The notes below the pieces were generated by a model, which was given only the letters and a program-made list of their open reading frames with translations, had not been told where the DNA came from and searched no databases. Shown here piece after piece: positions 988-55,300 of a DNA stretch of 64,000 bases (position 1 is the first letter of the stretch; the number at the start of each line of letters is the position of its first letter). The position numbers and the translations under genes are program-made. The DNA is taken from the IMG/VR virus record IMGVR_UViG_3300031873_001030; one strand, 5' to 3'. This DNA comes from a virus (taxonomy: Duplodnaviria > Heunggongvirae > Uroviricota > Caudoviricetes).

Positions 988-1001
988 TTAACATATGTTA
1001 A
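988..1001. repeat. TTAACATATGTTAA palindrome
   Basis: Read directly; 13 nt after stop 975 and 38 nt before ATG 1040. Confidence 0.95.
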
Positions 1002-1206: not shown

Positions 1207-1578
1207 ATGGGAATGTATAGTTCTACTGATTGGTGTGAATTGAAAGTGAAAAGGGGAAAGGAAATAGAATTTTTTGATTGGCTTAAGAGGAATGAAGATT
1301 GGAAAGAAGCGATAGAAGTATTGAATGGCGAAGTAGAGATACAAGTCAGTTGGAAGATTATAAGTTATTGGTATGACAGCTTCCTTGACGAACTTGAACA
1401 GCTTGCTGAATATATTACAGGAAAATGGATATTGCTTTATGAGACAGGAGAAAGCAAAGCCATAATAACATTTACAGAAGATGACGAAGTGAAGATAGAA
1501 GTTGGGGAAATGGATTATCACAAAATTGATATAGATGATTTGAGAAAGGAAAATATGAAAATGGAAAGGAGTGATTAA
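1207..1578 (+). CDS. hypothetical acidic protein
   Basis: ORF track; stop codon TAA lies inside palindrome 1575-1588. Confidence 0.55.
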   Translation: MGMYSSTDWCELKVKRGKEIEFFDWLKRNEDWKEAIEVLNGEVEIQVSWKIISYWYDSFLDELEQLAEYITGKWILLYETGESKAIITFTEDDEVKIEVGEMDYHKIDIDDLRKENMKMERSD

Positions 1579-1626
1579 CATATGTTAAGAGAGTCGGCGG
1601 ACCCTGAGTTGCTTAACATATGTTAA
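1575..1626. repeat. pair of TTAACATATGTTAA palindromes (1575-1588, 1613-1626) enclosing a 24-bp GC-rich insert
   Basis: Read directly; insert gagagtcggcggaccctgagttgc is 16/24 G+C. Confidence 0.95.
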
Positions 1627-2313: not shown

Positions 2314-2504
2314 TTAACATATGTTAAGAATTCAGCAGTACCTGCAGCAAGCAACTCATTAACATATGTTAAGTATCTCCATCGAATCATCCTTGGCAAA
2401 CGCCAGACCCAGGAACACAAGTCTTTAACATATGTTAATGTAATCATTGGCCGCATTGCCTCAAACAAGAAAGAAAATCCCAGTCGCCCATTAACATATG
2501 TTAA
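2314..2504. repeat. four-copy TTAACATATGTTAA array (2314, 2359, 2425, 2491) with unique 31-, 52- and 52-bp spacers
   Basis: Read directly. It produces mirror-image artefact ORFs 2158..2559(+) and 2289..2564(-) with repeated LTYV(N/K). Confidence 0.95.
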
Positions 2505-4010: not shown

Positions 4011-4895
4011 ATGGCACTATGGGATAGGGAAGAAAGAAAGCATACGGAAAATAAAGTATTGCCACTCAAGGATATAGTATTTGATGAGAACATATATCCA
4101 AGACAAAGTTCATGGTGGCAAACTTCGTATAAATATGCCGAAGAGATGAAAGCAGGCGCAAGGTTTCCTCCAATCACAGTAGGTTTTGTGAATGGAAGAT
4201 ACGTGCTTGTGGATGGGAAGCATAGGAATGACGCACTTCTGATGAATAAGGAGACACATACATCAGTAGTAGTTCTCTATGGTTACACTTTGGATGAACT
4301 CTATATTGAAGCTGTAAAACTCAATAGGGCTCACGGTGTAGGACTTACTTCTTTCGACAAGGTCAAGATAATCAAGAGACTTGAAGATATGAAATATTCA
4401 TTGGGAGACATAGCCACGATAGTCCAGATTCCTTTGGGAAGCATAGAGAAATTTGTAGCACAGAGGATTACGTTAAATCCATTAGGACAAGTCACAGTAT
4501 TGAAATCTCCTCTCAAGTTTATGGCAGGAGGAACTATAACGATGACTGACGAAGAGCAAGATACTCTAAGTGTGAGGAGTGAGATAAGTCTGGTAAATCA
4601 GATGACACAGATATTCTCAAATCCGAAGATGCTAAGGGTTGATATAACATTCGTTGATGCTATCGAGAAGCTTTACCAACTGATTCAAGATTTCCTCAAA
4701 GAACAGAAAATTTTGAATGGAGCTGGAAATACAATAGAAGAAGTTCCAAAAGAGAAAATATACAAGAAAAGAGGAAGACCTAAGAAAATCAAGACTGAAA
4801 GTGAGACTTCAGAACCAAAGAAAAAGGGAAGACCTAAAGGTTCTAAGAACAAGCTTAAAGAACTTGATGTCAGTAACGTCAAAGAACAAGCATAA
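4011..4895 (+). CDS. ParB/Srx-fold (ParB-like nuclease domain) protein with two C-terminal AT-hooks
   Basis: N-terminal LPLKDIVFDENIYPR ... RFPPITV ... YVLVDGKHR matches the ParB N-domain pattern (DGxHR). C-terminal KKRGRPKK and KKKGRPKGSK are AT-hook cores. Confidence 0.7.
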   Translation: MALWDREERKHTENKVLPLKDIVFDENIYPRQSSWWQTSYKYAEEMKAGARFPPITVGFVNGRYVLVDGKHRNDALLMNKETHTSVVVLYGYTLDELYIEAVKLNRAHGVGLTSFDKVKIIKRLEDMKYSLGDIATIVQIPLGSIEKFVAQRITLNPLGQVTVLKSPLKFMAGGTITMTDEEQDTLSVRSEISLVNQMTQIFSNPKMLRVDITFVDAIEKLYQLIQDFLKEQKILNGAGNTIEEVPKEKIYKKRGRPKKIKTESETSEPKKKGRPKGSKNKLKELDVSNVKEQA

Positions 4896-4944
4896 ATAGT
4901 TAATCAGTTAGACTTTATTTGGAAAGAATGAAGCAGGGTTTAGT

Positions 4945-5015
4945 GACAACGAACCTCAGAGATAGAACTTACTGATTCTTAGAATCAGTTGGTTCTTACT
5001 GCGAGGTTCGTTGTC
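4945..5015 (+). repeat. 71-nt imperfect-hairpin element, copy 1 (candidate structured RNA or DNA cruciform site)
   Basis: Outer 13-bp stem GACAACGAACCTC/GAGGTTCGTTGTC, inner stems AGAAC/GTTCT and ACTGATTCT/AGAATCAGT; 50 nt after the ParB-like stop. Confidence 0.8.
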
Positions 5016-5431
5016 ATAGTTCCTTCCCTCTTCATACTTTCTTTAATATTAGGGAATTTATAAAAACTGTAGGTTTTTATTATGAGATAAGGTTCGGTTG
5101 GGTCAGTTGGGGTGGGTTCCGTTCCGATATGGTATGGTAAGATTATATTTATTGGACGTGGTAGGATAGGGTAGGATGCGATATGGTATTGTTACTTGTT
5201 CCGATATGGTTCGGTGATTTGGGGTTAGGTTAGGTCTGTTCCGATAGGGCAAGGTATGGTATTTTATTTATTCGATACGGTTCGGTTTGGTGGGTTTGGG
5301 TTAGGCAAGATAAGATAGGGTTAGACAAGGTATCTTACTTTTGTATCCGATTGGGTAAGGTCTGGTAGTATTCGGTCCGTTGTGGTTAGGCACGATATGG
5401 TGTGGTAAGGTTTGACATTTATAGTCAGTCA

Positions 5432-5491
5432 TTAACATATGATAAAGAGTTGGACCCAGTGCACGGGTGGCATTCCATTAACATATGTTAA
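5432..5491. repeat. palindrome pair (5432-5445 TTAACATATGATAA with 1 mismatch; 5478-5491 perfect) enclosing a 32-bp GC-rich insert
   Basis: Read directly; insert agagttggacccagtgcacgggtggcattcca is 19/32 G+C. Confidence 0.9.
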
Positions 5492-5525
5492 TGAGAAAAG
5501 ATAAGAAATAATGTAAAATGATAAT

Positions 5526-5798
5526 ATGAAGAAGATAAAGGAAGAATTTTGCTTTCGCAGGAATGATACTAGAACTTCATATGATATGCAGAAAGGCTAT
5601 CTGATATATGGCAAGATTGATGACATTTATAATATCATCACTTACAATCTATTTGAGATGTGGAATACTACAAAGTGTTTTAAAAGGTTTAGGAAATTGT
5701 TCGTCACTACTTCAAATCACGAATGGATACATTATCTTGTTCCAGATATAAAAGATGGAAGTCTGATGAAGAAGATTGAAAATTGGTTTAACTGGTAA
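5526..5798 (+). CDS. hypothetical protein embedded in the GGTNN tract
   Basis: ORF track; bracketed by a 42-bp perfect direct repeat that contains the palindrome. Confidence 0.45.
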   Translation: MKKIKEEFCFRRNDTRTSYDMQKGYLIYGKIDDIYNIITYNLFEMWNTTKCFKRFRKLFVTTSNHEWIHYLVPDIKDGSLMKKIENWFNW

Positions 5799-5822
5799 AA
5801 TGTATCGTTAACCAAAATTCCA

Positions 5823-5836
5823 TTAACATATGTTAA
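5823..5836. repeat. TTAACATATGTTAA palindrome (within the 42-bp direct repeat 5817-5858 = 5472-5513)
   Basis: Read directly. Confidence 0.95.
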
Positions 5837-5881
5837 TGAGAAAAGATAAGAAATAATGAAAATCAAAAAGAGGTAAAAAAA

Positions 5882-5989
5882 ATGAGATACTATTGCCGAG
5901 AACATAAGGAAAGTTTTGAGACTACTGTCTGCTTTCTTCAACATGTTCTTAAGGAACACCATAGCATATTTGACATCACAAGTGAATAG
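5882..5989 (+). CDS. 35-aa Cys/His-containing peptide
   Basis: ATG 5882 lies 45 nt after the palindrome; translation MRYYCREHKESFETTVCFLQHVLKEHHSIFDITSE; below the track cutoff. Confidence 0.3.
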   Translation: MRYYCREHKESFETTVCFLQHVLKEHHSIFDITSE

Positions 5990-6151
5990 ATATTTATGTG
6001 ATGAGGTGGGGTCAAGTCAGGTCGGTTCTGGTTGCGATACTGACCTTATCACACCAAACCTCACCTTACCAGGGTTCGATAAGTTGTGATTTGGTAGGAT
6101 AGGGTAAAGTTATTTATATTTGAAACACGTAATTATATGTCAAGGAAGTCT

Positions 6152-6223
6152 GACAACAAACCTCAGAGTTGGAACTTTCTGGTTCTAAAAAATCACTTAG
6201 TTCTTTCTGCGAGGTTTGTTGTC
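6152..6223 (+). repeat. imperfect-hairpin element, copy 2
   Basis: Outer stem GACAACAAACCTC/GAGGTTTGTTGTC. Confidence 0.8.
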
Positions 6224-6949
6224 TTTGTATCGACTTTATCATTCGGTCAGGTAAGGCGGGTTCAGGTGGGGTATAGTTTCGGTTCGGTATGGTAGTTTGA
6301 CATTTATACGATACGGTAAGGTGAGGTTTGGAAGATAGTCTTTATGATTCGGTAAGGTGGGGTCAGTTGCGATTGTGTGAGGTTTGATTTGGTTTGGTCT
6401 GATTTGGTAGTTTGAGGCAAGGTAAAGTTAATTCCTTTTATATGATAAGGTATGGTCTAATTCGGTCTGGTTTGGTTGGATGGGCTACGTTCCGATAAGG
6501 TTCGGTATGGTAATATGACACTTATACGATTAGGTTCGGTCAGGTAAGGTTGGGTCAAATGCGATTAGGTAAGATGAGGTTCGGTCAGATACGGCAAGAT
6601 ATGGTATAATATTTATTCGGTTAGGTGAGGTCAGTTTAGGTCTGGTCTGATGTAGTTTGGCATGGTAGTATAACACTTATCGGTTTGGTTCGGTATGATG
6701 CGATATGGTCAGATTCGGTTTGATATGGTAGTATGACACTTATTGGTCAGGTTTAGTAGAATATGGTAAGGTTCGGTTCGATACGGTGGGATATGGTCAG
6801 TTAGGATTTGGAAAAGGAGAGAATAGTTTCAAGAAAGAATCAGCCCTTGGGTGAGTCCCTTGAAATGAAAAATGCCGCACCAGAGATGGTGATATTAGGT
6901 AAACTAATATAAATCAAGGTTCGAACCGTCCGTTAGGCAACGGTTCTCT

Positions 6950-7020
6950 GACAACAAACCTCAGAGTTAGAACTTACTGGTTCTTGAAATCAGTTGGTTC
7001 TTTCTGCGAGGTTTGTTGTC
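6950..7020 (+). repeat. imperfect-hairpin element, copy 3
   Basis: Outer stem GACAACAAACCTC/GAGGTTTGTTGTC; preceded by hairpin GAACCGT..ACGGTTC (6923-6946). Confidence 0.8.
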
Positions 7021-7201
7021 TTCCTCCAAAAAATTACTTATTCGATAGGGTAAGGATAGGTATGCTATGTCAGGGTCAGGTTTGGTTAGGTTTGATATGG
7101 TATGGTAAGGTAATTTAATACTTTTGCTTTGGTGCAATATGGTAATATTCGGTAGGGTATAATTCGGTGGGTTCCGTTAAGGTATGGTAAGGATTATATT
7201 T

Positions 7202-7321
7202 ATGAAATACGTATATAGGAATAGAGATGATGAAAGGGAACTTAAATTTGAAGTTCCAGATAGTATGTCAATAGCTGAAGCATTTGAATTTGCAGAAAGG
7301 AAATGCGCCAGCATGGAGTGA
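7202..7321 (+). CDS. 39-aa hypothetical peptide inside the GGTNN tract
   Basis: Only non-repetitive, protein-like composition in this part of the tract (MKYVYRNRDDERELKFEVPDSMSIAEAFEFAERKCASME); weak. Confidence 0.3.
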   Translation: MKYVYRNRDDERELKFEVPDSMSIAEAFEFAERKCASME

Positions 7322-7672
7322 TTATAATTTTTGGTCTGGTAGGGTGCGATTAGGTACGATTGGGTTTGGTCAGATAGGATATGATATGGACTATTGTAAT
7401 TTTCGGTTAGGTGCGGTTAGGTCTGGTTTGGTGCGTTCGAGGTGTGGTCAGATAGGATATGGAACTTTCATTCGTACTTTTCGGTAGGGCATTATTCGGT
7501 CCGATATGGTCTGGTCAATTCCGCTCTGGTTCGGTTAGATAGTGTATGGTGATATATGTTAAGTCGTGGTTTGGTTCGGTCTGGTAGAATGAGGTTTATC
7601 TTTTTTGATAGGCTATCGTTCGGTCTGGTGAGGTATGGTTCGGTAGGGTTCGGCAAGGTTTAATCCTTTTAG

Positions 7673-7787
7673 GAAAGGGTCTTTGATTCATTCCCTTTCT
7701 ATAAAAGATTTATCCCACGTCTTCGGGATTTATCCCTTCTTTCAGAAGGGATTTATATATCACCGAATCTCGTTTTAAACGAGATTC
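7673..7787 (+). promoter_or_regulatory. cluster of four hairpins (7673-7699; 7707-7758 double ATCCC/GGGAT unit; 7765-7787 GAATCTCGTTT/AAACGAGATTC)
   Basis: Inverted repeats read directly. The GATTTATCCC-N6-8-GGGATTTAT unit recurs at 25703 and 43483. Confidence 0.6.
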
Positions 7788-7963
7788 ACAAAGAACTTGT
7801 GGTCGGGTCTGATACGGCAAGGTGTGATACGGTAAGATAAGATTGGGTTATGGTCTGGCAAGGAACTTTTTACTTATATGGTTTGGCACGGTCCATTCCG
7901 TTGCGTTTAGGTGTGGTAAGGCTTGGTATGGTTACGATTTATTTGGCGTAACATATGTAATAC

Positions 7964-11186: not shown

Positions 11187-12039
11187 AGTCACATTTGCAG
11201 TCTGCGCATACAATGAGGAAAAGATTATCGCAGAATGTCTGAGACACATAAAGAACGTCGATTATCCTAACAAGGAGATAATAGTCGGAAGCGATGGGAC
11301 TGACAGGACAACTGAGATAGCACAAAATATTGGTGGTGTGGAAGTCATATCATCTGGAGAGAGGCTTGGAAAGACTCAGATGCTGATGAAGATAATAGAG
11401 CAAGCCAAAGGAGATATAATAATCATAAATGATGCTGAATTTTTCCTATTTCCAAATGACGCTGTCTACAAGATTGTAGAAAGTTTTGAGAACGAAAGGA
11501 TAGGAGGATTGTCATTTGGCTCTTCAGCTCCTCATGAGATTGACTTCACAAATTGGTGGGGACTCGTGGAACACGTGATACAGGACATATTCAGATATCA
11601 TAGGATGAAAAAGAACCCACTCACGTCATTGAAAGATGCTAATTTTATCATCGTAGCAAATGCTTTCAGAAAGGATATCATAACAAAGCTTGAGACGATA
11701 AATGATGATGCTGAGATAGGATATCAATTACTGTCTAAAAATCATTATCTGCTATATGTCCCTTCAGTCAGTTTCTATACACCTGGAGGTTCTGCAAAGA
11801 ACATAAAGGATAATATAAACCAGAGGTCAAGGACTGCAGTAGGATGGATACAGATAGGAAAGTTGTATAAGATAAACTTCTTGAGATTCTATATAATCTC
11901 TTTCTGGATGATTGTCAAACTGATATTCAGCCTGATAATCTGGACTGGAGTATTCATATTCAGCTACCTGAAAGGAAGATTCCTCTACATCATAGGCAGA
12001 AGGTCTTCAAAGCAAGTATGGACAAAGGTAAGAAGATGA
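11167..12039 (+). CDS. family-2 glycosyltransferase with C-terminal membrane helices
   Basis: VTFAVCAYNEEKII...YPNKEIIVGSDGTDRT and IIINDAEF (DxD-like) match the GT2 pattern. Confidence 0.8.
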   Translation: MINVLPKVTFAVCAYNEEKIIAECLRHIKNVDYPNKEIIVGSDGTDRTTEIAQNIGGVEVISSGERLGKTQMLMKIIEQAKGDIIIINDAEFFLFPNDAVYKIVESFENERIGGLSFGSSAPHEIDFTNWWGLVEHVIQDIFRYHRMKKNPLTSLKDANFIIVANAFRKDIITKLETINDDAEIGYQLLSKNHYLLYVPSVSFYTPGGSAKNIKDNINQRSRTAVGWIQIGKLYKINFLRFYIISFWMIVKLIFSLIIWTGVFIFSYLKGRFLYIIGRRSSKQVWTKVRR

Positions 12040-12374
12040 GAAAAAAATTCAATTATGAAAACTATTACAAGAAATATTATGAAAGTCATAAGGATAAGCA
12101 CTTGTATTATGTCAATGAATGGAAGAAGAAGCATAAAGATAGTGTAAGAATTTATTCCAAACGTTATTCCAAAAGTTGGAGATTGAGAAACAAAGAAAGA
12201 TTGAAGAAAACTTCAAAAAGATATTATGACAGGCATATCAGAAGTTCTTGGTTCGATAGGATATTTGGTTTCAAATGCAAAGTATGCGGCAAGAGATATA
12301 AAGATAAAAAGGCTTTGGGTGGGCATACCACATATTGTAAAAGAAAAAGGATTGAACTTATTAACATATGTTAA
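12018..12374 (+). CDS. basic Tyr/Lys-rich protein with C-terminal CxxC...HxxxC zinc finger
   Basis: ORF track; stop codon inside palindrome 12361-12374. Confidence 0.5.
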   Translation: MDKGKKMRKKFNYENYYKKYYESHKDKHLYYVNEWKKKHKDSVRIYSKRYSKSWRLRNKERLKKTSKRYYDRHIRSSWFDRIFGFKCKVCGKRYKDKKALGGHTTYCKRKRIELINIC

Positions 12375-12411
12375 AAAGATTGCATGCAGATAACTTCTTA
12401 ACATATGTTAA
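12361..12411. repeat. palindrome pair (12361-12374, 12398-12411) enclosing a 23-bp insert
   Basis: Read directly; insert aaagattgcatgcagataacttc. Confidence 0.95.
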
Positions 12412-12446: not shown

Positions 12447-12995
12447 ATGGACCCATTGTGGAACAAGAAATTAGAGATAATAAAGAAGCATGGTATAGAC
12501 AATGCTATTTTGGATTTAGGATGCAACATAGGTGACTTCTCCTCATATTTCGTGAGAAATGGATATGATGTGACTGGCGTCGACATAGACAATGAAAATT
12601 TGCTCATAGCAAACAGCAGAGGGATACATACGAAAAAATGCAATCTGAATCTGAAATTGCCTATGAAAAGCAATTCATATCCTACCATCTTCGCATTGGA
12701 GATAATAGAGCATCTCATCAATCCAGACAATGTCATAAAGGAAGCGCATAGACTGCTCAAAGATGGCGGGAAGTTTTATGTGTCAGTCCCATACTTCGGA
12801 CTAGTAAAAAGAACAGCGATATCGCTGTTCTTTTTTGATGATGTCTTTCTATATAATGGTCCGCATATAAGATTTTTCTCTGAAAAATCTTTCCGTAATA
12901 TATTGACAAAAAATGGATTCAAGATTCTCAAGATTTATAAACTTGGAAGATTCTATCCAGTCTATATGGACATGCTTGCCGTATGCTCTAAATAA
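12447..12995 (+). CDS. class I SAM-dependent methyltransferase (Methyltransf_11-like)
   Basis: ILDLGCNIGDF motif I, LEIIEHL, LKDGGKFYVSVP. Track start 12405 is the ATG inside the palindrome; ATG 12447 preferred. Confidence 0.75.
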   Translation: MDPLWNKKLEIIKKHGIDNAILDLGCNIGDFSSYFVRNGYDVTGVDIDNENLLIANSRGIHTKKCNLNLKLPMKSNSYPTIFALEIIEHLINPDNVIKEAHRLLKDGGKFYVSVPYFGLVKRTAISLFFFDDVFLYNGPHIRFFSEKSFRNILTKNGFKILKIYKLGRFYPVYMDMLAVCSK

Positions 12996-15059: not shown

Positions 15060-15419
15060 TTACCTCTTTAATTTCTTTTTTCGAAAGAAGGCATTGTCAT
15101 AAGTGCAATTCCATTCTGGTTTTCCAACGAGATAAAATCGTTCCTTGCTCAACTTGCCTCTTTTATATTTCTTCTTTTCAATCTTTCCGTAATGATAGCA
15201 TTTGCCTTCATCAAGGACATCATTGACCACATGCCAGAATTTCCTGAACATCAGATTTGCAGGCTTGTCCATATAATTAATCTTCAACCAATGCTGCATA
15301 TTCTTGTTCATCATGAAGAATCCCATGTCAAACATGGCTCTCAATTCATCTTCAGATATCGGTATCTGCAACCAATCCATATTTTTGTCATCAACTATGT
15401 TAATCGTCACTCTCTTCAT
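15060..15419 (-). CDS. hypothetical protein
   Basis: ORF track. Confidence 0.5.
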   Translation of the reverse strand: MKRVTINIVDDKNMDWLQIPISEDELRAMFDMGFFMMNKNMQHWLKINYMDKPANLMFRKFWHVVNDVLDEGKCYHYGKIEKKKYKRGKLSKERFYLVGKPEWNCTYDNAFFRKKKLKR

Positions 15420-15682
15420 AAGATATTCGCTCCTAGATTTCCTATGTTGAGTGCAAGTTTTTCACATCGCAGCCCATCATCAGTCACATCTATCACTTTA
15501 TATAATACTCCATTTTTATCCATGATTACTTTTCCGATATAGTTCTGCTTGTTGACTCTCATGTCTTTCAGCACTTCTGAAGTTATCGAACTCATGTCAA
15601 GAAATCCTCTTATATCATTTTTTTCTGTCCTTGCTCCAAAAATAATCCTTATGTCTCCCATATCATTCATCCTCCAACTCAT
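15416..15682 (-). CDS. hypothetical protein
   Basis: ORF track; 4-nt overlap. Confidence 0.45.
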   Translation of the reverse strand: MSWRMNDMGDIRIIFGARTEKNDIRGFLDMSSITSEVLKDMRVNKQNYIGKVIMDKNGVLYKVIDVTDDGLRCEKLALNIGNLGANIL

Positions 15683-15765: not shown

Positions 15766-15984
15766 TCAACCCTGGCAATAATGTCTTGTTCTCTTCTCAC
15801 CTTTGAAAATCCTTCTCGCTTTCCATATTTCCCGATTCTTGTTTACGACGAAGTTCAGGTATTCGCCATCATTATCCATCTTCTCCAAGTCAGCACAAAG
15901 CATGTTCTCATGATATGGACATGGATAATAGTTTCCTCCGCTTGTCCTGCATCCGCAGGCAAAGTCTGTTCCGATTTGAATCAC
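15766..15984 (-). CDS. small Cys-rich protein
   Basis: ORF track. Confidence 0.45.
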   Translation of the reverse strand: MIQIGTDFACGCRTSGGNYYPCPYHENMLCADLEKMDNDGEYLNFVVNKNREIWKARRIFKGEKRTRHYCQG

Positions 15985-16499: not shown

Positions 16500-16775
16500 T
16501 AAACCACAGATTACCAGACCATACCCGAACCTATAAGACCACATCACACCTGAGCGAAAAGTGTTAACCATACCACATCAGACTTTATCATGCCTTACCA
16601 GTCCTTAACATATCGTAACTTACCACAACGTAGCATAAATGACAATCCATATCTTACCACACACCAACATATCTTACCAAAACCCACCCTAACCCATCTA
16701 ACCCAATCATAAATATAATCCCTATCTTACCAAATCCCATCACAACGGACCCTACCAAATCAGACCCCGTTAAAT
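16500..16775 (-). repeat. GGTNN pentanucleotide tract on the minus strand (NNACC on +)
   Basis: 5-nt reading ttacc agacc atacc ... accaa aaccc accct aaccc; lies downstream (sense) of minus-strand gene 16869..17171. Confidence 0.8.
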
Positions 16776-17742: not shown

Positions 17743-18933
17743 ATGACGTTGAAGAATCTTGTAACGCCATTGGAACTTAAGACTCTCTGGGATTCTGAAT
17801 ATTACAAATCAATATTGACAGCTACAGCTAGCAGCTGCCAATTTGGAAGGATAAGAGAACACCAACGTAATAATACATTCAAAGAAATCAGAGCCAATCT
17901 GAATGCTCTGATAGTTGGAGAATATGGAATTGGGAAATCCACAATGTTGGACATTAAGAATGTCCCAATAGTCAGGGCTAATACAGTTTCAGTTGCTGGA
18001 CTAGCTGGAACTACGACAAGAAGTGGGGAACACGTTATTGGAGCTGCATATAAAGCTAATAATAAATTACTAATTATAGATGACGTTGGTAGTGGTGAAA
18101 ATTCTTATATAGATAATTCTGTAAAACGATGCATGAATCTGCTATTGGAACCTCCGCATACTTTTTCACGAATGTTAGGATTTAAGATGAACATTCCTGT
18201 GAAAGAGAAGAAGGGTGGAGCTTGGGTGAAAGGAAGTGAGAATCAGTTTACATTGCGTTCTAAGTTCAGTTGCATCGTAGCTACAACATCAGTTGTAATT
18301 CGAAATACTGATGACAAAGCTTGGATGTCAAGATTCGTACCAGTAAAACTACATGGTAGTGTGGATTACATGTTTGAATTTTTATCTGGTTCTAATCCAT
18401 TTACAATTACTGGTTTGAATCGGAAAGTCAAGTTATTTGAATTTCCAGATTATCTGGAATTCTTGGAATTCTATGAAGAACATTTTCGTGGAAGTCTGTG
18501 GGAGAAAAGCATAATAGAAAAGGAAGATGAAGTCGGTTCTATAGCGAGAAATACTGGTGACTTGGTAAGATTGGCTGCTTTCAATTGCGCTGTCGATGAT
18601 AGAATAAATATAGAATTTGAAGATGCCAAGAAAGTTTTTGATAGGTTCTACAATCAGATATGGTTCAATATCCAAGTTGGACCACTGACTCATGAACAAT
18701 ATAGAGTTCTATTACTTCTCAATAAGAAGTTGACTGAAGATGAGATAGCAGAAACTATACAAAGGTCACAGCCTTACGTATCTAAGATGATAGAGAAATT
18801 TGAAAGTAAGGGAATACTTGTAGACAGAAAAGTTGCGAAAGAAGTTGAAAACTTTAAACAAACTTCATGGGAAAAACTCGAACCACAGCAGACTTTATCA
18901 GAATCTGTAAAGTTAGATGGTAGTCATGAGTGA
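17743..18933 (+). CDS. MCM-like AAA+ ATPase with C-terminal winged helix-turn-helix
   Basis: Walker A VGEYGIGKST, Walker B LLIIDDVG, sensor-1-like CIVATTS, Arg-finger-like MSRF (MCM SRFD), and C-terminal LTEDEIAETIQRSQPYVSKMIEKFESKGIL. Confidence 0.65.
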   Translation: MTLKNLVTPLELKTLWDSEYYKSILTATASSCQFGRIREHQRNNTFKEIRANLNALIVGEYGIGKSTMLDIKNVPIVRANTVSVAGLAGTTTRSGEHVIGAAYKANNKLLIIDDVGSGENSYIDNSVKRCMNLLLEPPHTFSRMLGFKMNIPVKEKKGGAWVKGSENQFTLRSKFSCIVATTSVVIRNTDDKAWMSRFVPVKLHGSVDYMFEFLSGSNPFTITGLNRKVKLFEFPDYLEFLEFYEEHFRGSLWEKSIIEKEDEVGSIARNTGDLVRLAAFNCAVDDRINIEFEDAKKVFDRFYNQIWFNIQVGPLTHEQYRVLLLLNKKLTEDEIAETIQRSQPYVSKMIEKFESKGILVDRKVAKEVENFKQTSWEKLEPQQTLSESVKLDGSHE

Positions 18934-21728: not shown

Positions 21729-22961
21729 TTGGAGATGAAAGTGATGAACATAGGTGAAGTTGAAATTGGAAAACCTTGGCAATATAAGGAAAATTCTATT
21801 GGAATTGTTGTTCCACTTTTAAGGAAGAATCAAGTCAAAAGAAATTATAAGACAGTTGAGGAAGTTAAGGAGATGATGAATATCAAGGATACTGGAAATA
21901 TAGACAGTGTTGAAATTTCCTCAAAAGTCAATGAACCAGTTTTTATCAGGAGCGGGACGATGTTTGAAGGGGTTGGAACTCAGAGCAGGACGCCAACAAC
22001 TAGCATTGTCATAATTCCAAATCAACAGCCTATGAAAGTTCCTGTAAAATGCATACATGCTTCTCATCACATATCTTCTGGAAGCAACTTTAAAGTCGCA
22101 GGTAGTATTCCCCACTATATTGGTTATGCAGCTTTTGGACCAAGGGCTAGTCAATCTCGTGTGTGGTCTTCTGTAAGCATGCAAGCAAGTTCTGTAAGCC
22201 ATCATGCTATGCATCTTTCTGACAATCTTATCGATAACGTAAGAAAAATAGAAACTTTTAAGAAAGATATTGGCGAAGCAGTTAAAAACTATCCGATATT
22301 GAAAAATCAAGTTGGTATAGTTGTTCTTGATTTTAACGGGGTTGTTGGTCTTGAGATGTTTGATAATTCTGAATCTTGGGCAGCAGTATGTAAAGACATA
22401 ATCAATAAGTATTCTGACACAATAACACAGCTTGTTGACAGTCCTTTATTTTCATTGAATGAAGAAAGCATAAAACCAAAGATATTGGAATTCTTGAAGA
22501 AGCTGACAGAAGCAAAAGAAGAGATTATCTTTCAAGCAGATGTGATGAAAACAATCTTATTGGAAAATGGAGATATCATTGGAGAATGTACGAGTATTGA
22601 TGGCAGGATGATACATCTCATGGGAATGAAAAAGAAGGATGAGGAAAGGACATATGGTTCAGTTGCTCCAAATAATTTACCATTTACACCACAAAATTGG
22701 ACAACCAGAGGTTCTAACTATTCTGTGCTATCTGCACTTGGAGATGGAAGTAGGAGATTTTCAGAAATAGAGAAAACAACTAAATTATCCCCAGCTACAG
22801 TAAGCAAAAATTTAAGCAAGTTCCATTCTCTTGGATTTATTGACAAGTCAGCAGAAATAATAAACAACAAGGCCCGTGAAGTTTATAGCCTTACAAGCAA
22901 CGGTAAAAATGCATTTTTTACTATGCATGATGTCAGGAAGAAATTGATGAAGCTTGGATAA
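21729..22961 (+). CDS. uncharacterised N-domain fused to a C-terminal wHTH (ArsR/TrmB-like)
   Basis: C-terminal YSVLSALGDGSRRFSEIEKTTKLSPATVSKNLSKFHSLGFI. Confidence 0.6.
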   Translation: MEMKVMNIGEVEIGKPWQYKENSIGIVVPLLRKNQVKRNYKTVEEVKEMMNIKDTGNIDSVEISSKVNEPVFIRSGTMFEGVGTQSRTPTTSIVIIPNQQPMKVPVKCIHASHHISSGSNFKVAGSIPHYIGYAAFGPRASQSRVWSSVSMQASSVSHHAMHLSDNLIDNVRKIETFKKDIGEAVKNYPILKNQVGIVVLDFNGVVGLEMFDNSESWAAVCKDIINKYSDTITQLVDSPLFSLNEESIKPKILEFLKKLTEAKEEIIFQADVMKTILLENGDIIGECTSIDGRMIHLMGMKKKDEERTYGSVAPNNLPFTPQNWTTRGSNYSVLSALGDGSRRFSEIEKTTKLSPATVSKNLSKFHSLGFIDKSAEIINNKAREVYSLTSNGKNAFFTMHDVRKKLMKLG

Positions 22962-24415: not shown

Positions 24416-24479
24416 TTAACATATGTTAATCAGTGATGCAGCATAATGCAAAATTCCTTCAGTCTTTAACATATGTTAA
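24416..24479. repeat. palindrome pair (24416-24429, 24466-24479) enclosing a 36-bp insert
   Basis: Read directly; lies between the tRNA fragment and tRNA-Tyr. Confidence 0.95.
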
Positions 24480-24527
24480 TGTCAAATTAGAAATGCAATA
24501 CGATTGTTAACAAGAAAGTTAACAAAG

Positions 24528-24598
24528 TCTCACCTGCCAGAATTGCACCAGCATCTACGAGGCTACAGCTCGTTGTTCTACTGTTGAACTAAGGCGAG
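24528..24598 (-). tRNA. tRNA-Tyr (GTA)
   Basis: Hand fold CTCGCCT-TA-GTTC-AACAGTA-GAAC-A-ACGAG-CTGTAGC-CTCGT-AGAT-GCTGG-TGCAATT-CTGGC-AGGTGAG-A; C1-G72 as in archaeal/eukaryal tRNA-Tyr. Confidence 0.75.
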
Positions 24599-24677: not shown

Positions 24678-24751
24678 GGAGAATAGAGGGATTTGAACCC
24701 TCTCTAACAAGTTCACAGCTTGACGTGCTCGCCTACTACACCATATTCTCC
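24678..24751 (-). tRNA. tRNA-His (GTG) with genomically encoded G-1
   Basis: G-GAGAATA...TATTCTC-C, D stem GTGT/GCAC, anticodon loop CTGTGAA, T arm GAGGG-TTCAAAT-CCCTC. Confidence 0.8.
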
Positions 24752-25212
24752 ATTTTATTATGTTCTTCTCTATGGCAATTTGCACATAGAAGTTTGCATT
24801 TCTGCAATTCTTTTCGTATCACCTCGAGACTATTATGCCATATTCTGGATATTTCATATTTCTTTTCTCCGTTCATATGATGAAATTCAAGTGCTGCGAA
24901 ACATTTGTTATATCCACATTTTTGACATTTACCTCCAAATTCCATTTTCATAATTTTTGTTTTTTCTTGGTTTTTACGCTTTTGTGCTATATACCACAAA
25001 TGTCTCTGAGGGAGAGATGATTTTTGTTTATGTTGTTTTATATATTTTCTCATATATTCTCTATGATATTTTTTCCTTTTTTCTCTGTTTTCAGGGTTTG
25101 ACAACCAAATTTTCCATCGTTCTTTTTCTTGCTCACGGTGTGATTTTCTATATAATCTATTTATTTCACACAATCGTTCTTTGTTTTTTTCATAATATTT
25201 TTTACTGGTCAT
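24736..25212 (-). CDS. HNH endonuclease with N-terminal basic Tyr/Lys-rich region, inserted in the tRNA cluster
   Basis: CQKCGY...LEFHH...N...CANCHREEH; its 3' end overlaps tRNA-His by 16 nt. Confidence 0.8.
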   Translation of the reverse strand: MTSKKYYEKNKERLCEINRLYRKSHREQEKERWKIWLSNPENREKRKKYHREYMRKYIKQHKQKSSLPQRHLWYIAQKRKNQEKTKIMKMEFGGKCQKCGYNKCFAALEFHHMNGEKKYEISRIWHNSLEVIRKELQKCKLLCANCHREEHNKMENMV

Positions 25213-25466: not shown

Positions 25467-25538
25467 TGGACACAAGCGGGAATCGAACTCGCATCTCTTT
25501 CTTGCAAGGGAAGTATCCTACCATTAAACGATTGGCCC
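25467..25538 (-). ncRNA. degenerate tRNA-like element (Ala TGC-like anticodon loop CTTGCAA) with mismatches in the acceptor, anticodon and T stems
   Basis: GGGCCAA...TTGTGTCCA pairs at only 5 of 7 acceptor positions (2 mismatches). Anticodon stem CTTCC/GAAAG and T stem GCGAG/CCCGC each carry an A-C mismatch. Confidence 0.35.
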
Positions 25539-49388: not shown

Positions 49389-52300
49389 ATGCATTGGAAA
49401 CATTTACTTACTCATAAGTCTCTTTTTCTGGAGGGGATTCGAATCAGTATAAGATTGTCAAAGGCAACTGTAAAGATTACAAGCTTGATATTCGCATTGG
49501 CTCTGATTGGAACTTTTGGCTATCTTTTTATCTCCAATGTCAGCAACAAAGTGAGTGGAGATTCTTATAATGACATAAATATGAGTGATATAGTCAATAA
49601 TACTATAGTGACAGCATCTAGTTATTCGAATTATGAATATGAGGTGACTAAAAATGTATACAAGACTTATTTCCAAGACAATATCAATTCAGGTGAAGCT
49701 GTAAGGTTTGAGAAGGATGGATATTATTTCATATATGATTTGAGTGGTGGAAAGATTCAGTGGGCAGAACAAGATGGAAACCCTACGAAGACAAAGTCCA
49801 TAGGAGCAATATTATCTTCTCCGATAAGTCTTGCTGGTGATAAAGTTTATTACAATGATGCTTTTGCATATACAAATGTGAGTTATCTTATCTTGAATGA
49901 CATGCTCAAAGAGAATTTCATATTGTCATCATCGTTGCCGATAGATGACACATACTTGTATTTGGAATATACTGGTGAGATAAAGCATTCGGATAGTCTG
50001 ATGATTTATGCAAATGATAAGAATCAGACTGAAAAGAATTTTGTAACTCAAGGTAAGATAGAATTCAAGGATGTAAATGGAACTACGATATTTTTCTTAC
50101 CAGCACCTACAGTAACTGATTCGAATGGAAAGTCGGAATATGGTTTTTATGATATAAAAATTTCCAGTGGAAAGATTGCATTCAATCTTAGAGTGAACAG
50201 CACTTTCTTGAAAAATGCCGCTTACCCAGTGTATATAGACCCAACTATTAGAACTTTCAATGATACATTATCATCAAAAAACTTGACATTTATATGGAAT
50301 CAGAATCAGACACTTTATATATCAATACCAAAAAATGCTATAGTTACAAATGCTTACTTGAATTTGAGTGGATTCCCGGCACAGAATAATGTAAATTTCT
50401 TTGACCCCTTAGACAATGGAAATTATATTAGTTCAACCAATGCTATAGTAAGTGGCGGGCAAATAACATTAAATCGTCAAAACAATACAGGGGAAAGTTT
50501 TACTTCACCTCCCTGCAGTGAAATACAATATATAGGCGGTACCGTACCAGGTACTTATGCAACTGCACAATCCTTTAGAGCATCGGGTGTGTATCTTTCA
50601 TATATTAAAGTCAAGTTCTTCAATCAAGTCACCGCAACATTATCAATAAGGTCGAGTTTAGCTGGAGCCAATCTTGTTTCTACAAGTGTTGCAAGCGGAG
50701 ATGAGAGATATTATGAATGGTATATCACAAACCCACCAGCGCTCACTGTTGGTAATACTTACTACATAGTTCTTACATGGAGTTCTGACGGAAGCAATTA
50801 TGGAGGCTTGAGACAGGCTTGCTACAATTATTTGTATCCGAACGGAACTTATTATGCTTACTTGTTAAGTTCCTGGAACACTGAACCGAATGGGGCTTAC
50901 TATGACCATGCTTTTGAAACAAAATACTGGGAGTATGATACAAGCAATTATGTTAATTCAGTTGCAATAGACACCACATCATATTATTTGAATGCAACCT
51001 TAACAAAATCAGATAACATACCAGCAGGAACATCAATAACTTATTATTTAAGTTCAAATGGTGGCGCGTCTTGGGAACAAGTCACCTCAGGCATAAATCA
51101 TACATTCTCTAATATCGGGCAAGATATCAGATGGAGAGGAGTATTGACAACAAATTCTGATAGGTCATCAACACCAACACTTTATAACATGACTGTGAAT
51201 GCATCTCAAGGGTATTGGCCAATGAATCCTTATCTTGATATTTCTGGGGATGGAGACGTGGAATGGAATTATACAGGAACATTTAATCAATCAAACAATA
51301 GGACAGCAAACTTATCCTCTGAAATAAACACATATTTGTCGACTTGTACACCAACAAGTGGGAATTGCACAATGCCATTAGTATTCCATTCAGATACAGC
51401 AGGAATAATTCAGGTTTCAGATATCAACATAACATATAATGTGCCTTTTATATCGGTTTGGAATACTTCAAAGGCAGGAACTAGCAACTCTACACAGATT
51501 GAATTGCCTTTATACAATGGAGGCACTTATGCATTTACAGTGGACTGGGGTGATGGAACAACAGATTACATCACTTCATATCTGAATGATAACCACACTT
51601 ATGCGACAGCAGGGGTTTACGTTGTGAACATAGCTGGGACTATAAATGGATTCAGGTTCAACAATGGTGGCGACAGATTAAAGATTATCAACATCACACA
51701 ATGGGGAGACTTGAATGTAGGAAATTCTGGTAATTATTTTCACGGTTGTGCTAATTTGAATAGCAATGCCACTGATAACTTGAATTTGGCAGGAACTACG
51801 GATTTGTCTAATATGTTTTATTCAGCTACTTCCTTCAATGGAAGTATTTCAGGCTGGGATACAAGTGGTGTCACTTCCATGTATACTATGTTCTATGGCG
51901 CTTCTAATTTTAATTCGAATATTTCAAGCTGGAATACAGGAAATGTAATCAATATGGAATATATGTTTTATACCGCTTCTTCCTTTAATCAGAATATTTC
52001 AAACTGGAATACAGGAAAAGTCACTAGTATGTTAAGTATGTTTCATGGTGCCACTTCTTTCAATCAGAACATAAGCAATTGGGATGTCAGTAAAGTCACT
52101 ACTATGTCTGATATGTTTCATAGTGCTACTTCCTTCAATGGAAATATTTCAGGCTGGAATGTAGTCAATGTCACTACTATGTATGATATGTTCCATAGTG
52201 CCACTTCTTTCAATCAGAGTATGAGTAGTTGGAATACAGGAAATGTTGCTACTATGTTTTCCATGTTTTATGGTGCTACTGCTTTCAATGGCAATATTTC

Positions 52301-55300
52301 AGGCTGGAATACAGGAAATGTCAATAATATGGTAGCTATGTTTTATAATACTCCTTTTAATCAGAATATTGGAAATTGGAATGTCAGCAGTGTCACTACC
52401 ACATATCAGATGTTTTATAGTGCTTCTATTTTCAATCAGAATATCAGTAGTTGGAACACAAGTAAAGTCATTACTATGAGTGAGATGTTTCGTGGTGCTT
52501 CTGCTTTCAATCAGAATATAAGCAATTGGGATACAAGCAAAGTCACTACTATGACCAATATGTTTTATGATGCTACTTCATTCAATGGCAATGTTTCAGG
52601 CTGGAATATAGGAAATGTCACTACTATTGATTATATGTTCCGTGGTGCTACTTCTTTCAACCAGAGTATGAATAATTGGAACACAAGTAAAGTCACTACT
52701 ATGTATGCTATGTTCTATGGCGCTTCTAATTTTAATGGAAATATTTCAAATTGGAATACAAGCAATGTCATTGCCATGGATTATATGTTTTATAATACTG
52801 CTTTCAATCAGAATATTTCAAGCTGGAATACAGGAAAAGTCGCTAGTATGGCAGGTATGTTTCAGAGTGCTGCTTCCTTCAATCAGAATCTTAGTTCTTG
52901 GAATGTCAGTTCAGTGACTAATGCGGCAAATATGTTTTTGTCTGTGACATTATCTACTCCCAATTATGATTCCTTGCTTGTTGGATGGGGCAGCAGGGTT
53001 GAAAAGAATGCTACTGTTTTTTCGGGAGGTAATTCCAAGTATTCTGCTGCTGGTCTTGCTGGCAGGAATAATTTGACTGGTATTTATAATAATTGGACTA
53101 TCACTGATGGTGGTCCTGTGGACATAATTAATCCGACATATACTAACTTCGGTTCAGATTACACGAATAACACAGCAGTAAATGGCGGAAGTATTTTAAC
53201 TTATTATGCGAAATGGATAGATAATATCCAATTAGACAAATGTGTAAACTCAAGCAAGATAAATACCTCAGGCAGCTGGACTAATGGAACTTGGGCATCA
53301 GCAGGAACAGGTAACTGGACTAACTACACAGTAAAATTTCCAGCAGAAGTAGGAAGCAACTATACAGTAAAAATCTATTGTAACGATACTTCTGGATACA
53401 TGAATGTGACTGGAACTTTATTCTGGTGGGCAGAGAGTTTTGTGATAACTCAGAATCATACTTGGCAAGGTACGACATTGGAAGATGACAATACATTCGC
53501 ATATTCTCCAACGTTGAATGTGAGTTTCCAGATGACTGCATTGAATTTTGACAATGGAACATTTGAATTTGACGGAGCTAATTATACAATTTCTACAAAT
53601 CCAAAAGTTTACAACAATACCAATGGAGTTTATTGGATTAATTTTACAAATAAAAAACCAGGAAATTATAATTTCAAATGGTATGCCAGTACGATTAGTG
53701 GAATATGGAAAAATACAAGTCAAGTGACTTTGATAGTTACAAAGGCATATCCTGCATTTTCAAATTCAGTTACAACACCGATAAATTATCTTACTGCATC
53801 TGATTATGCAAGTAATGGAAATAATTTAGGTTGTGATGACTGTACATATTATACAAAAAGGAATGGAACTCAGATATGTGTTGGAGCTTGTTCAGATACG
53901 ACTGTATTAGGAGCAAGTGCATATAATTATACAATCTATACGGCTGGAGGTGAGAATTATACTTCAGGCCAGAGTGAATTGGATTTGACTGTGAATAAAA
54001 TCATATTGTCAGGTACGATAAATTCTCCTGATGTGACTTATCCTACTGGAATGTCAATAACTGGAAGCGAATCAAATACTGGAGATGGAGATGTCGCATA
54101 TCAAACTTGTTTAGATAATGTATGTACATTAGGCAAGGGACCAAATACTTTTAATTATGGTGCGAATACTTACACTTGCAAGTTCAACACCACTGGAGCT
54201 ACTTTTGAAAACTATACGGCAAGTGCAAGCATAGCTATAGACTCATGCACTATAAACAAAGGTACGTCACTTTCGCTGTCGATAAATTCAAATGTGACAT
54301 CACCGATAACATATCCTATACCATCATCGATAAACGGAAGTGGGTGTGTGTTTGGAGCTGGTTATGGGACAGATATAGTTTGTACTTTATACAGAGGAAA
54401 TTCAACTTGGTCAGGAACTGGAAATGATACGGCAATCTTAGGAGCGGGCATCTATGCATATAATTATTCTACTCCAGGAGGAACAAACTGGACTGCAACA
54501 TCTGCAAGCAATTATACACTGATAGTGAACAGGGGAAGTCTTTCTTTATCGATAAATTCCAATGTCACGTCTCCGATAACATATCCTACACCATCATCGG
54601 TAAATGGAAGTGGATGTGCAGGAAGTGATGTAGTCTGCACTTTATACAGAGGAAATTCGTCTTGGTCTGGAACAGGAAATGATTCTGCAGTTTTATCTGC
54701 AGGTGTGTATGCATATAATTATTCCACTCCAGGTGGAACTAACTATTCAGCAGCATCTGCTGTTAATTATACATTGGTAGTGCTTGGTAATACTCCGCCA
54801 ACATATTCGTATTTTGGTGCAACTGTTCCAAATAATACAGTAGTGGTTGGTGGAAGTGTTGTGACTTATTATGCAAAATGGTCAGATGATGTCCAATTGG
54901 ATAAGTGTGCAAATTCTTCGAGAGTGAATAATTCAGCATGGGTTAATGGGACATGGGTATCTCCAGGAACAGGCAATTGGACGAACTATACAGTAGCATT
55001 TCCATCTGAGCGTGGGAGCAACTTGACAATAAGGATTTATTGCAATGATAGTGTCGGGCAGATGGTTGAGACTGGAACTTTGTTCTGGATTATAGATTAT
55101 TATCCATATTCAAATTCTACAGGACAAGCAAGCAATTCGATACCTTCAGGGACTAACAACACGTTATTTTCTAAATTATTTGCTGGTGGCGGAGGCACTA
55201 CACTTAGTTGGGCATGGCTATCTACAAATGAAACAGGAGCGTGGAAAAATTATACAATTACTAATTATACGTATTATAGTGTAATCTTAAATGAATCAAA

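Follow-up and report, generated by a model that had tools for sequence, protein, structure and literature searches.

A perfect 14-bp palindrome, TTAACATATGTTAA, recurs between the small genes of a virus-like genome represented by IMG/VR record IMGVR_UViG_3300031873_001030, of which we analysed a stretch of 64,000 nucleotides, hereafter called the window. We propose, with moderate confidence, that these palindromes are dispersed binding sites of a dimeric regulator, which punctuate cassettes of orphan open reading frames (ORFans) and double as joints for their exchange, the pairs and arrays being clusters of the same site.

The palindrome is over-represented in one region of the genome

The palindrome, which reads T-TAA-CAT-ATG-TTA-A, is found in the window 14 times in exact and twice in near form, where dinucleotide shuffles yield 0.91 +/- 0.93, and all of the copies are confined to positions 700-24479. 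The window is part of a 92-kb metagenomic contig, and 9.2 kb upstream of it were recovered from a second assembly of the same population (contig L024); positions upstream of the window start are given as negative coordinates. This upstream DNA carries 11 further exact copies, including three more pair or triple modules, which brings the total for the genome segment seen to at least 25, all within 33.5 kb; the 39.5 kb beyond have no exact copy. Variation within the window could not be followed through a second assembly, the Logan contigs being 100% identical to it. As a second motif, ACACGTG showed no enrichment in the window.

A preliminary description of this DNA had singled out a unit of two palindromes enclosing a short insert. 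Such pairs do recur at the four loci where it placed them, with inserts of 24, 32, 23 and 36 nt (Table 1), and they link the small-gene region, the G/T-rich (GGTNN) tract and the tRNA locus, as it had stated; at 5432-5491, however, the left palindrome is TTAACATATGATAA, with one mismatch. The basic unit, moreover, is not the pair but the single 14-bp dyad, with at least 27 occurrences when near copies are included (25 of the 27 exact), mostly as singles at gene junctions, and also as pairs, triples and one four-site array. Adjacent pairs number 12, versus 5.7 +/- 1.9 under random placement in non-coding DNA (p ~0.001), and the centre-to-centre spacing within pairs and arrays is most often 44-46 bp. 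Conservation is limited to the strict 14-bp core and a weak symmetric extension (tcW before the core, Wga after it); the pairs are thus not pieces of a longer conserved repeat or of a known family of miniature inverted-repeat transposable elements (MITEs).

The motif is kept, varied or absent in related genomes

Four contigs obtained from other samples (L008, L015, L019 and L031; 45-88% amino acid (aa) identity) have preserved the exact 14-mer, at positions that differ in part. L015 carries five sites, and L019 and L031 four each; in L008, a site follows the homolog of a 396-aa protein, where the window has none. In L027/L028 (75% identity by a conserved 189-aa protein), we found the symmetric variant TTATCATATGATAA together with mixed forms, amounting to 14 perfect matches to TTAWCATATGWTAA in 20.6 kb. 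The architecture is the same in L027, with singles, pairs and a five-site array whose inserts measure 30, 30, 41 and 34 nt. No over-represented dyad was detected in L025 (73%), L029/L030 (62%) or L033 (76%), all of which keep the 189-aa gene, the ParB-like gene and the G/T-rich tract. With the exact motif, a variant or no dyad depending on the relative, the palindrome system is lineage-specific. Where the motif is present, clusters are conserved in position, for example upstream of a 194-aa gene in this genome, L015 and L027. A dyad held in many copies, with both arms changed in the clade variant, fits purifying selection on the site set of a dimeric regulator.

Palindromes follow stop codons, and some lie near promoter-like boxes

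The sites lie 0-24 nt past the upstream stop and 11-120 nt ahead of the next start, between co-directional plus-strand ORFans. Since the palindrome closes two frames out of three with a stop, whichever the strand, and has a central ATG, two modules fall exactly at the stop codon of the preceding gene, as previously noticed: the TAA of ORF 1207-1578 occupies positions 2-4 of the palindrome at 1575-1588, and that of the C2H2 zinc-finger ORF 12018-12374 occupies positions 12-14 of the palindrome at 12361-12374. The same property accounts for two unrelated ORFs that end in NIC-stop, and for gene-caller errors at 12405 and across the array at 2314-2504. In practice, a palindrome with TAA stops and an ATG misleads gene callers. 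Gene callers start a methyltransferase ORF at ATG 12405, inside the second palindrome of the 12361-12411 module; a more plausible start is 12447, for which GAAGGT provides a ribosome-binding site. Similarly, a gene-called ORF of 130-133 aa (2158-2559) runs through the whole four-site array, with LTYV at each copy. Since the array palindromes share this open frame and their spacings (45, 66 and 66) are multiples of 3, we considered a coding repeat; this was rejected because only 3/12 spacings are divisible by 3 genome-wide and because the ORF is not conserved in L019 and L031.

Several genes are preceded by a promoter-like box, TTTAAGATAAWAWT...ACGTGCTTA. Two palindromes, at -6652 and -6588, merge through their right arm with a TTTAAGATAA-type box; at 5478 and 5823, 7 nt separate the palindrome from the box, which is downstream of it and within a 42-bp palindrome-plus-leader repeat that flanks the 90-aa ORF 5526-5798.

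Homology between relatives breaks at palindromes

Insertions, deletions and replacements between relatives break at the palindrome flanking ORFans, as for the cassettes bounded by promoter early stem-loops (PeSLs), whose recombination with one another gives mini-circles. Compared with L015, homology ends at or beside palindromes. The small gene between the MoxR and VWA genes is replaced, L015 having a DUF7557 ORF and a single site, and this genome a 75-aa membrane ORF and a pair. At the junction between the VWA gene and the 194-aa gene, both genomes have three sites, and the last inserts (30 vs 31 nt) are unalignable between flanking genes that are ~74% identical. One block of homology with L015 stops 2 bp short of the site at -192, truncating an ORF that continues in L015. 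In the alignment with L031 (87% aa identity), the G/T-rich tract shows long stretches without change. One place in this tract is arranged differently in each of three genomes: L031 has a palindrome, 22 nt and a palindrome, the window has an imperfect palindrome, 32 nt, a palindrome, an ORF, a palindrome and an ORF, and L019 has a duplicated palindrome-plus-leader unit. The 22-nt insert of L031 is unrelated to the 32-nt insert of the window at this orthologous junction, so that, contrary to what ordinary conserved intergenic sequence would give, the inserts differ between orthologous loci. Nothing in L031 corresponds to the array at 2314-2504, and both L019 and L015 show a single site where this genome has a pair.

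These breakpoints would also be expected if recombination were primary, the palindromes being cassette-boundary or crossover sites like attC or PeSLs, the inserts minimal or empty cassettes, and regulation secondary. This explanation is possible, but we consider it less than probable. In agreement with it, the segments that vary between relatives begin or finish at palindromes, the content between palindromes at one junction ranges from 22 nt to whole ORFs, the 42-bp palindrome-plus-leader repeat flanks an ORF, and the sites come immediately after the stops of co-directional ORFans, including ORFs truncated by the palindrome and ending in NIC-stop. The near-perfect identity of the copies fits spread by copying, and PeSLs are a documented precedent (PMC2839356, PMC4122927). 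However, no tyrosine or serine recombinase, transposase or Cas1 was detected in the scanned ORFs (from ~73 kb of the 92-kb contig) or in precomputed Pfam lists, and no Phage_integrase-type match in those ORFs or in the Pfam lists of L006, L024, L025, L027, L029, L031 and L033. In addition, 14 bp is short for homologous exchange, and recombination between two palindromes would delete the short inserts, leaving their retention, their GC content and their 30-32-nt mode unexplained. Finally, because intergenic DNA is in any case the quickest to diverge, the agreement between breakpoints and sites is partly confounded.

The palindromes might alternatively be a selfish mobile repeat, of the repetitive extragenic palindrome (REP)/REPIN or MITE type, which spread in intergenic DNA and has no viral function. 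Many near-identical copies, arranged as singles, doublets and clusters as in REP elements and bacterial interspersed mosaic elements (BIMEs), would be typical of such a repeat, as would its variable presence at orthologous positions, its location inside the 3' ends of some ORFs, and its occurrence in some lineages and absence from equally close ones. We nevertheless find this unlikely. No gene for a REP-associated tyrosine transposase (RAYT) or of the IS200/IS605 type was seen among the scanned ORFs, only 14 bp are conserved with no flanking element sequence, the inserts share nothing, and the copies are confined to one functional region. Moreover, the motif is held exactly in relatives whose coding DNA is ~73-77% identical in nucleotides; together with the conserved positional clusters, this points to purifying selection.

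The palindrome is more probably a protein site than a structure

The preliminary description had suggested that palindromes flanking an insert could form stem-loops or a dumbbell. As RNA, a single palindrome yields only -0.8 kcal/mol, and 15 inserts gave folds no more stable than those of shuffled sequences (mean z = +0.16). A stem of 13 bp can form between the two copies of a pair, but any repeated self-complementary word would produce one, and no Rfam family, including the CRISPR direct-repeat (DR) models, matches the palindrome modules. In L027, the base at position 4 of a site varies independently of the one at position 11 (7 sites pairable and 7 mixed, versus 5.3 mixed expected; Fisher p = 0.5). 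Such mixed sites favour a dimer on TTAWCAT half-sites, since a hairpin would select against them. Taken together, the independence of the arms, the negligible hairpins and the unstructured inserts make a dimeric DNA-binding protein more likely than a structure of RNA or DNA, and the suggested folding is not supported.

Accordingly weak is the idea of an RNA-level signal, in which hairpins, or pair stems of 13-14 bp with the insert as loop, would mark processing, stabilisation or termination, and inserts would be released as small RNAs. The sites do sit at gene 3' ends in co-directional operons, the stem open to a pair has a folding energy of -13 to -27 kcal/mol, and the clade-level change from A:T to T:A at positions 4 and 11 would preserve pairing. 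We hold this idea to be very doubtful, as the hairpin of a single site lacks a U-tract in addition to being so weak, the inserts are neither more structured than shuffles nor conserved between relatives, and half of the L027 sites are mixed, that is, unpairable at positions 4 and 11, with no covariation.

Which protein would read the site? Scans of sequence collections for the pair pattern retrieved at least eight unrelated loci in which the same 14-mer pair stands directly upstream of one conserved small-protein family, HTH_17 (excisionase/MerR-like) by Pfam. There, the pair has the layout of a classical operator pair under autoregulation, its AT-rich spacer holding the promoter, in an apparently undescribed family; these loci give the word a precedent as an operator. 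These HTH_17 loci (L001, L002, L004, L005, L011, L014/L023 and L016) come from unrelated Candidate Phyla Radiation (CPR) and other uncultivated genomes, with an AT-rich spacer of 15-42 nt. HTH_17 was rejected as the reader in the present case, since this genome has no homolog; another protein must therefore read the site. DUF7557 was likewise rejected, being absent here and present in a dyad-free relative. The ParB-like protein is an unlikely reader, judging from the persistence of its gene in L025, L029/L030 and L033 without the dyad. By domain only, candidate readers include the products of two winged helix-turn-helix (wHTH) ORFs, 17743-18933 and 21729-22961, as well as small Zn or basic proteins (for example that of ORF 2642-2854) and the Zn-ribbon protein of 194 aa. 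The largest cluster, of 3-5 sites, always lies just upstream of the gene of this conserved Zn-ribbon protein (194-221 aa), which is followed by a DNA ligase gene; the Zn-ribbon gene is found at 6946-7530 in L024 (window -2228 to -1644), 3850-4380 in L015 and 2895-3560 in L027. The protein is a candidate for an autoregulated reader or for a key regulated gene.

Inserts are unique, GC-enriched and replaced between relatives

The inserts between paired sites had been described as GC-rich and unique. Pooled, they have a GC content of 0.449, versus 0.320 for other intergenic DNA (binomial p = 8e-9), and 0.343, the background level, is recovered in the 20-nt outer flanks of the modules. Among the four inserts first cited, two are indeed GC-rich (0.67 and 0.59), but the other two are at the level of the genome (0.35 and 0.39). 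The inserts of L027 are enriched too (0.432 vs 0.339). Insert length ranges from 22 to 81 nt over 27 inserts, with a mode at 30-32 nt (9/27) and a weak periodicity of ~9.5 bp (p ~0.01). The strand skew of the inserts is 0.04, compared to 0.29 for the region.

The uniqueness of the inserts is borne out. No shared k-mer or motif was found within them, and their similarity to one another is no higher than in shuffles; local duplication was rejected as their source, as they resemble neither their flanks nor each other. Neither elsewhere in the genome nor in ~164 kb of relatives did the inserts have a match, and five insert cores, searched as exact 20-22-mers, had none in IMG/VR. One 19-nt match of an insert in L027 proved to be a second near-palindromic element rather than a spacer-target pair. 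This element, TGTTACATCTGTAACA, occurs in L027 at 7394-7409, 12741-12756 and 15839-15854, with one copy inside the insert of a palindrome pair.

Unique inserts between identical repeats recall CRISPR-like or casposase-like capture, in which short foreign DNA would be integrated at the palindrome, the 14-bp target would be duplicated, and the resulting repeat-spacer mini-arrays would act as memory or decoy; we consider this highly improbable. In a specific form to which we give just as little credence, a non-CRISPR integrase would capture GC-richer foreign fragments (mode 30-32 nt), duplicating its 14-bp palindromic target as casposases or Cas1 do, and the repeat-spacer records thus dispersed in the virus would turn over between close relatives. 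In its favour, no two inserts are alike, and they show no strand bias and, in two clades, a higher GC content than the genome; 30-32 nt is their commonest length, close relatives differ strongly in them, and an array can have 4-5 repeats. Casposon integration, for its part, yields target duplications of 14-15 bp. Capture would thus account for the GC enrichment and the fast turnover of the inserts, but it fails on other grounds: the repeats are only 14 bp long, the inserts vary from 22 to 81 nt and, within one array, measure 31, 52 and 52 nt, neither an integrase or casposase nor Cas1, Cas6 or any other cas gene was found in the scanned ORFs, no Rfam CRISPR-DR model matches, the insert searches described above returned no protospacer, and most copies are singles at gene junctions.

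A proposed set of regulator sites that may also serve as cassette joints

The enrichment of the palindrome, its dyad symmetry, its conservation and variation among relatives, the independence of its half-sites, its placement and the breakpoints beside it are observed; protein binding, a regulatory effect and recombination at the palindromes we infer, as follows. TTAACATATGTTAA would be a duplex-DNA recognition site composed of two TTAWCAT half-sites, and a homodimeric sequence-specific protein, presumably encoded by the virus-like lineage, would read it. The palindromes would punctuate an ORFan-rich plus-strand 'early-type' region, several of them on or beside a box resembling TATA and B recognition (BRE) elements, and occupancy of the sites may control or block the transcription of single small-gene cassettes, or insulate it. 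Pairs and arrays would be clusters of one site, probably raising occupancy or permitting dimer-dimer contacts, the sequence between the sites not being read itself. Since the identical word bounds many cassettes, it may also serve as, or mark, the joint for their insertion, deletion or replacement.

Several observations weigh against this proposal. No reader protein was found, HTH_17 and DUF7557 being excluded and the ParB-like gene being kept without the dyad. The near-perfect identity of 25/27 copies is unusual for a regulon evolved by point mutation and suggests spread by copying or recombination. Many palindrome sites have no recognisable adjoining promoter box, the box being fused or near at four positions. 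Spacing is not tightly phased, insert lengths giving no signal of helical phasing at 10.5 bp. A set of operators leaves unexplained the GC enrichment of the inserts in two clades (0.45 and 0.43), and it is silent on why the inserts turn over faster than neighbouring non-coding DNA, which is 84-97% identical. Lastly, whether the host is archaeal or bacterial is itself something that we infer.

If the palindromes are indeed regulator sites, one short dyad would organise both the expression and the modular exchange of dozens of ORFan cassettes in a virus-like lineage that is uncultivated and probably archaeal. The regulation of archaeal viruses is poorly known, and a single 14-mer with few candidate readers makes experiments approachable, the A/T difference at positions 4 and 11 offering a natural specificity variant. 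The part that is possibly new is the presence of GC-enriched, strand-neutral inserts, mostly of 30-32 nt, that are replaced between close relatives.

Individual sites and genome context

The sites and modules of the window are listed in Table 1. A hairpin with an 11-bp stem (tttccatagta-aatttaaa-tactatggaaa) lies at 1641-1670, directly downstream of the 1575-1626 module. The copy at 16605-16618 is probably not functional.

Table 1 Palindromes and palindrome modules in the window
Feature	Position	Strand	Remarks
Single palindrome, TTAACATATGTTAA	700-713		4 nt past stop of ORF 372-695; 25 nt ahead of ATG 739
Single palindrome	988-1001		12 nt past stop of ORF 739-975; 38 nt ahead of ATG 1040; T8 run next
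Pair module	1575-1588 and 1613-1626		Insert 1589-1612, 24 nt, 16/24 G+C (0.67)
Four-site array	2314-2504		Palindromes at 2314, 2359, 2425 and 2491; inserts 31, 52 and 52 nt; GC 0.46-0.50
Pair module in G/T-rich tract	5432-5445 (TTAACATATGATAA) and 5478-5491 (exact)		Insert 5446-5477, 32 nt, 19/32 G+C (0.59)
Palindrome and leader, 42-bp direct repeat, copy 1	5472-5513	+	TATA-like AAGATAAGAAATAA box; flanks ORF 5526-5798
Palindrome (5823-5836) and leader, 42-bp repeat, copy 2	5817-5858	+	Upstream of ORF 5882-5989
Pair module	12361-12374 and 12398-12411		Insert 23 nt, GC 0.35
Doubtful copy with 2 mismatches, TTAACATATCGTAA	16605-16618		Within minus-strand gene block
Pair module	24416-24429 and 24466-24479		Insert 36 nt, GC 0.39; last copies in genome segment seen

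The module at 24416-24479 lies 47 nt from the 3' end of a tRNA-Tyr gene (24527-24598, minus strand). An integrated element at the tRNA cluster was considered and ruled out, as the HNH gene next to the tRNAs and XPF are arranged differently in relatives and as the palindromes reach 9 kb farther upstream. The cluster includes an HNH-like ORF (24736-25212, minus strand), and the fifth of the five tRNAs of the genome, at 25468-25538 (minus strand), was detected with Rfam (37.5 bits) and is not reported by ARAGORN.

The genome is probably that of an archaeal virus-like element, to judge from its gene content. No match to the window was found among deposited phages by DNA or protein search. Pfam and PHROG matches comprise an AAA/MCM-like protein with a wHTH domain, an ARPP-1 protein with a wHTH domain, a ParB-like protein, a Cas4-like PD-(D/E)XK nuclease, C2H2 zinc-finger proteins, XPF (ERCC4-HhH2), DUF7417, bpMoxR and VWA proteins and an ATP-dependent ligase; the conserved 189-aa protein matches phrog_4652, and relatives add Hjc and DUF7557. 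A 3752-aa protein (49389-60647), unusually large for an element of this size, contains multiple DUF285 (BspA-like) repeats (E = 3e-138).

The ParB-like protein is encoded by ORF 4011-4895, which has a weak phrog_1033 match and whose homologs carry PF02195. Directly after its gene, in all relatives including the palindrome-free ones, comes the G/T-rich 'GGTNN' non-coding tract (GC 0.41, strong G>C), located at 5060-5431 and 5990-7960 in the window, 2245-2450 in L019, 6660-7340 in L031 and 11500-13700 in L025, where it contains 7 copies of GGTTCATGCTTA. The ParB-like protein may have its centromere or origin in this tract. Between the stop of the ParB-like gene and the tract lies an inverted repeat of ~120 nt (4922-5041; DNA fold -34.5 kcal/mol, z = -9), and 32 bp following it (5019-5050) are 97% identical in L031. 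In L029, the 62% relative without palindromes, a tandem (GGGAGTAT)n repeat spans 15407-15600.

Comparison with known systems

We compared the palindrome system with families of repeated elements. No internal or extended conserved element such as those of MITEs or REP-REPINs was found, the inserts sharing no k-mer, and no RAYT or insertion sequence (IS)-family transposase was present among the scanned ORFs. With viral mini-CRISPR arrays, the modules share two to five identical repeats separating unique spacers of ~30 nt in a viral genome; however, the repeat is 14 bp and not >20 bp (about 21-48 bp in CRISPR), spacer length is irregular, and no cas gene was found in the scanned ORFs or precomputed Pfam lists. 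Integrons resemble the present region in their co-directional small ORFs, each with an inverted-repeat element right after its stop and a variable centre; here too, the arms end in ...AAC and GTT..., and the content between sites varies. The pair modules, which follow stop codons, measure 50-109 bp, and attC sites 57-141 bp, the latter being imperfect palindromes with R''/L''-L'/R' boxes and extrahelical bases. By contrast, the arms here match each other perfectly and carry no extrahelical bases, most junctions have just one 14-bp site, and no IntI, attI or Pc was found.

As in the centromere sopC of the F plasmid and the dispersed SopB (ParB-family) sites of N15, palindromic sites lie ~43-45 bp apart or dispersed in a phage or plasmid, with a ParB-family gene nearby. 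Yet sopC consists of tandem repeats with conserved spacers, whereas in the present case both the ParB-like gene and the G/T-rich tract occur in relatives that lack the palindromes. A ParB-family gene is thus encoded together with the sites, as in ParB-parS systems, but co-occurrence of the two across relatives fails (L025, L029/L030 and L033).

The KorB OB sites of the IncP-1 plasmid RK2 and the C1 operators of phage P1 are global operator sets on mobile elements. Like them, the present set comprises a dozen or more near-identical short sites over tens of kilobases, some probably at promoters and others far from them, single and doubled. In the KorB and C1 systems, one element-encoded protein reads all sites. 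GC-rich, fast-evolving spacers of ~30 nt within pairs are not a feature of these systems, and the ParB-like protein here is probably not the reader. The HTH_17 operators share the identical 14-mer, arranged as a pair; there, each locus has one pair, directly ahead of the gene for the regulator itself, and the spacer of 20-29 nt is AT-rich and contains the promoter, as opposed to the at least 25 copies, the GC-enriched spacers and the lack of an HTH_17 homolog in this genome.

Finally, PeSLs of T4-type phages are ~100-bp composites of a sigma-70 promoter and a GC-rich stem-loop terminator (PMC2839356, PMC4122927). The present motif differs in being only a 14-bp AT-rich perfect palindrome without a stable hairpin (-0.8 kcal/mol), with a promoter-like box at some copies only, and PeSLs are not reported as close pairs enclosing unique spacers of 22-60 nt. 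Nevertheless, in both cases a short conserved motif is repeated between the ORFans of a hyperplastic region, early-expressed in T4-type phages (PMC2839356, PMC4122927) and presumably so here. In both, too, the motif borders insertions, deletions and replacements between close relatives, an ORF lying between two copies in one genome where the relative has one copy.

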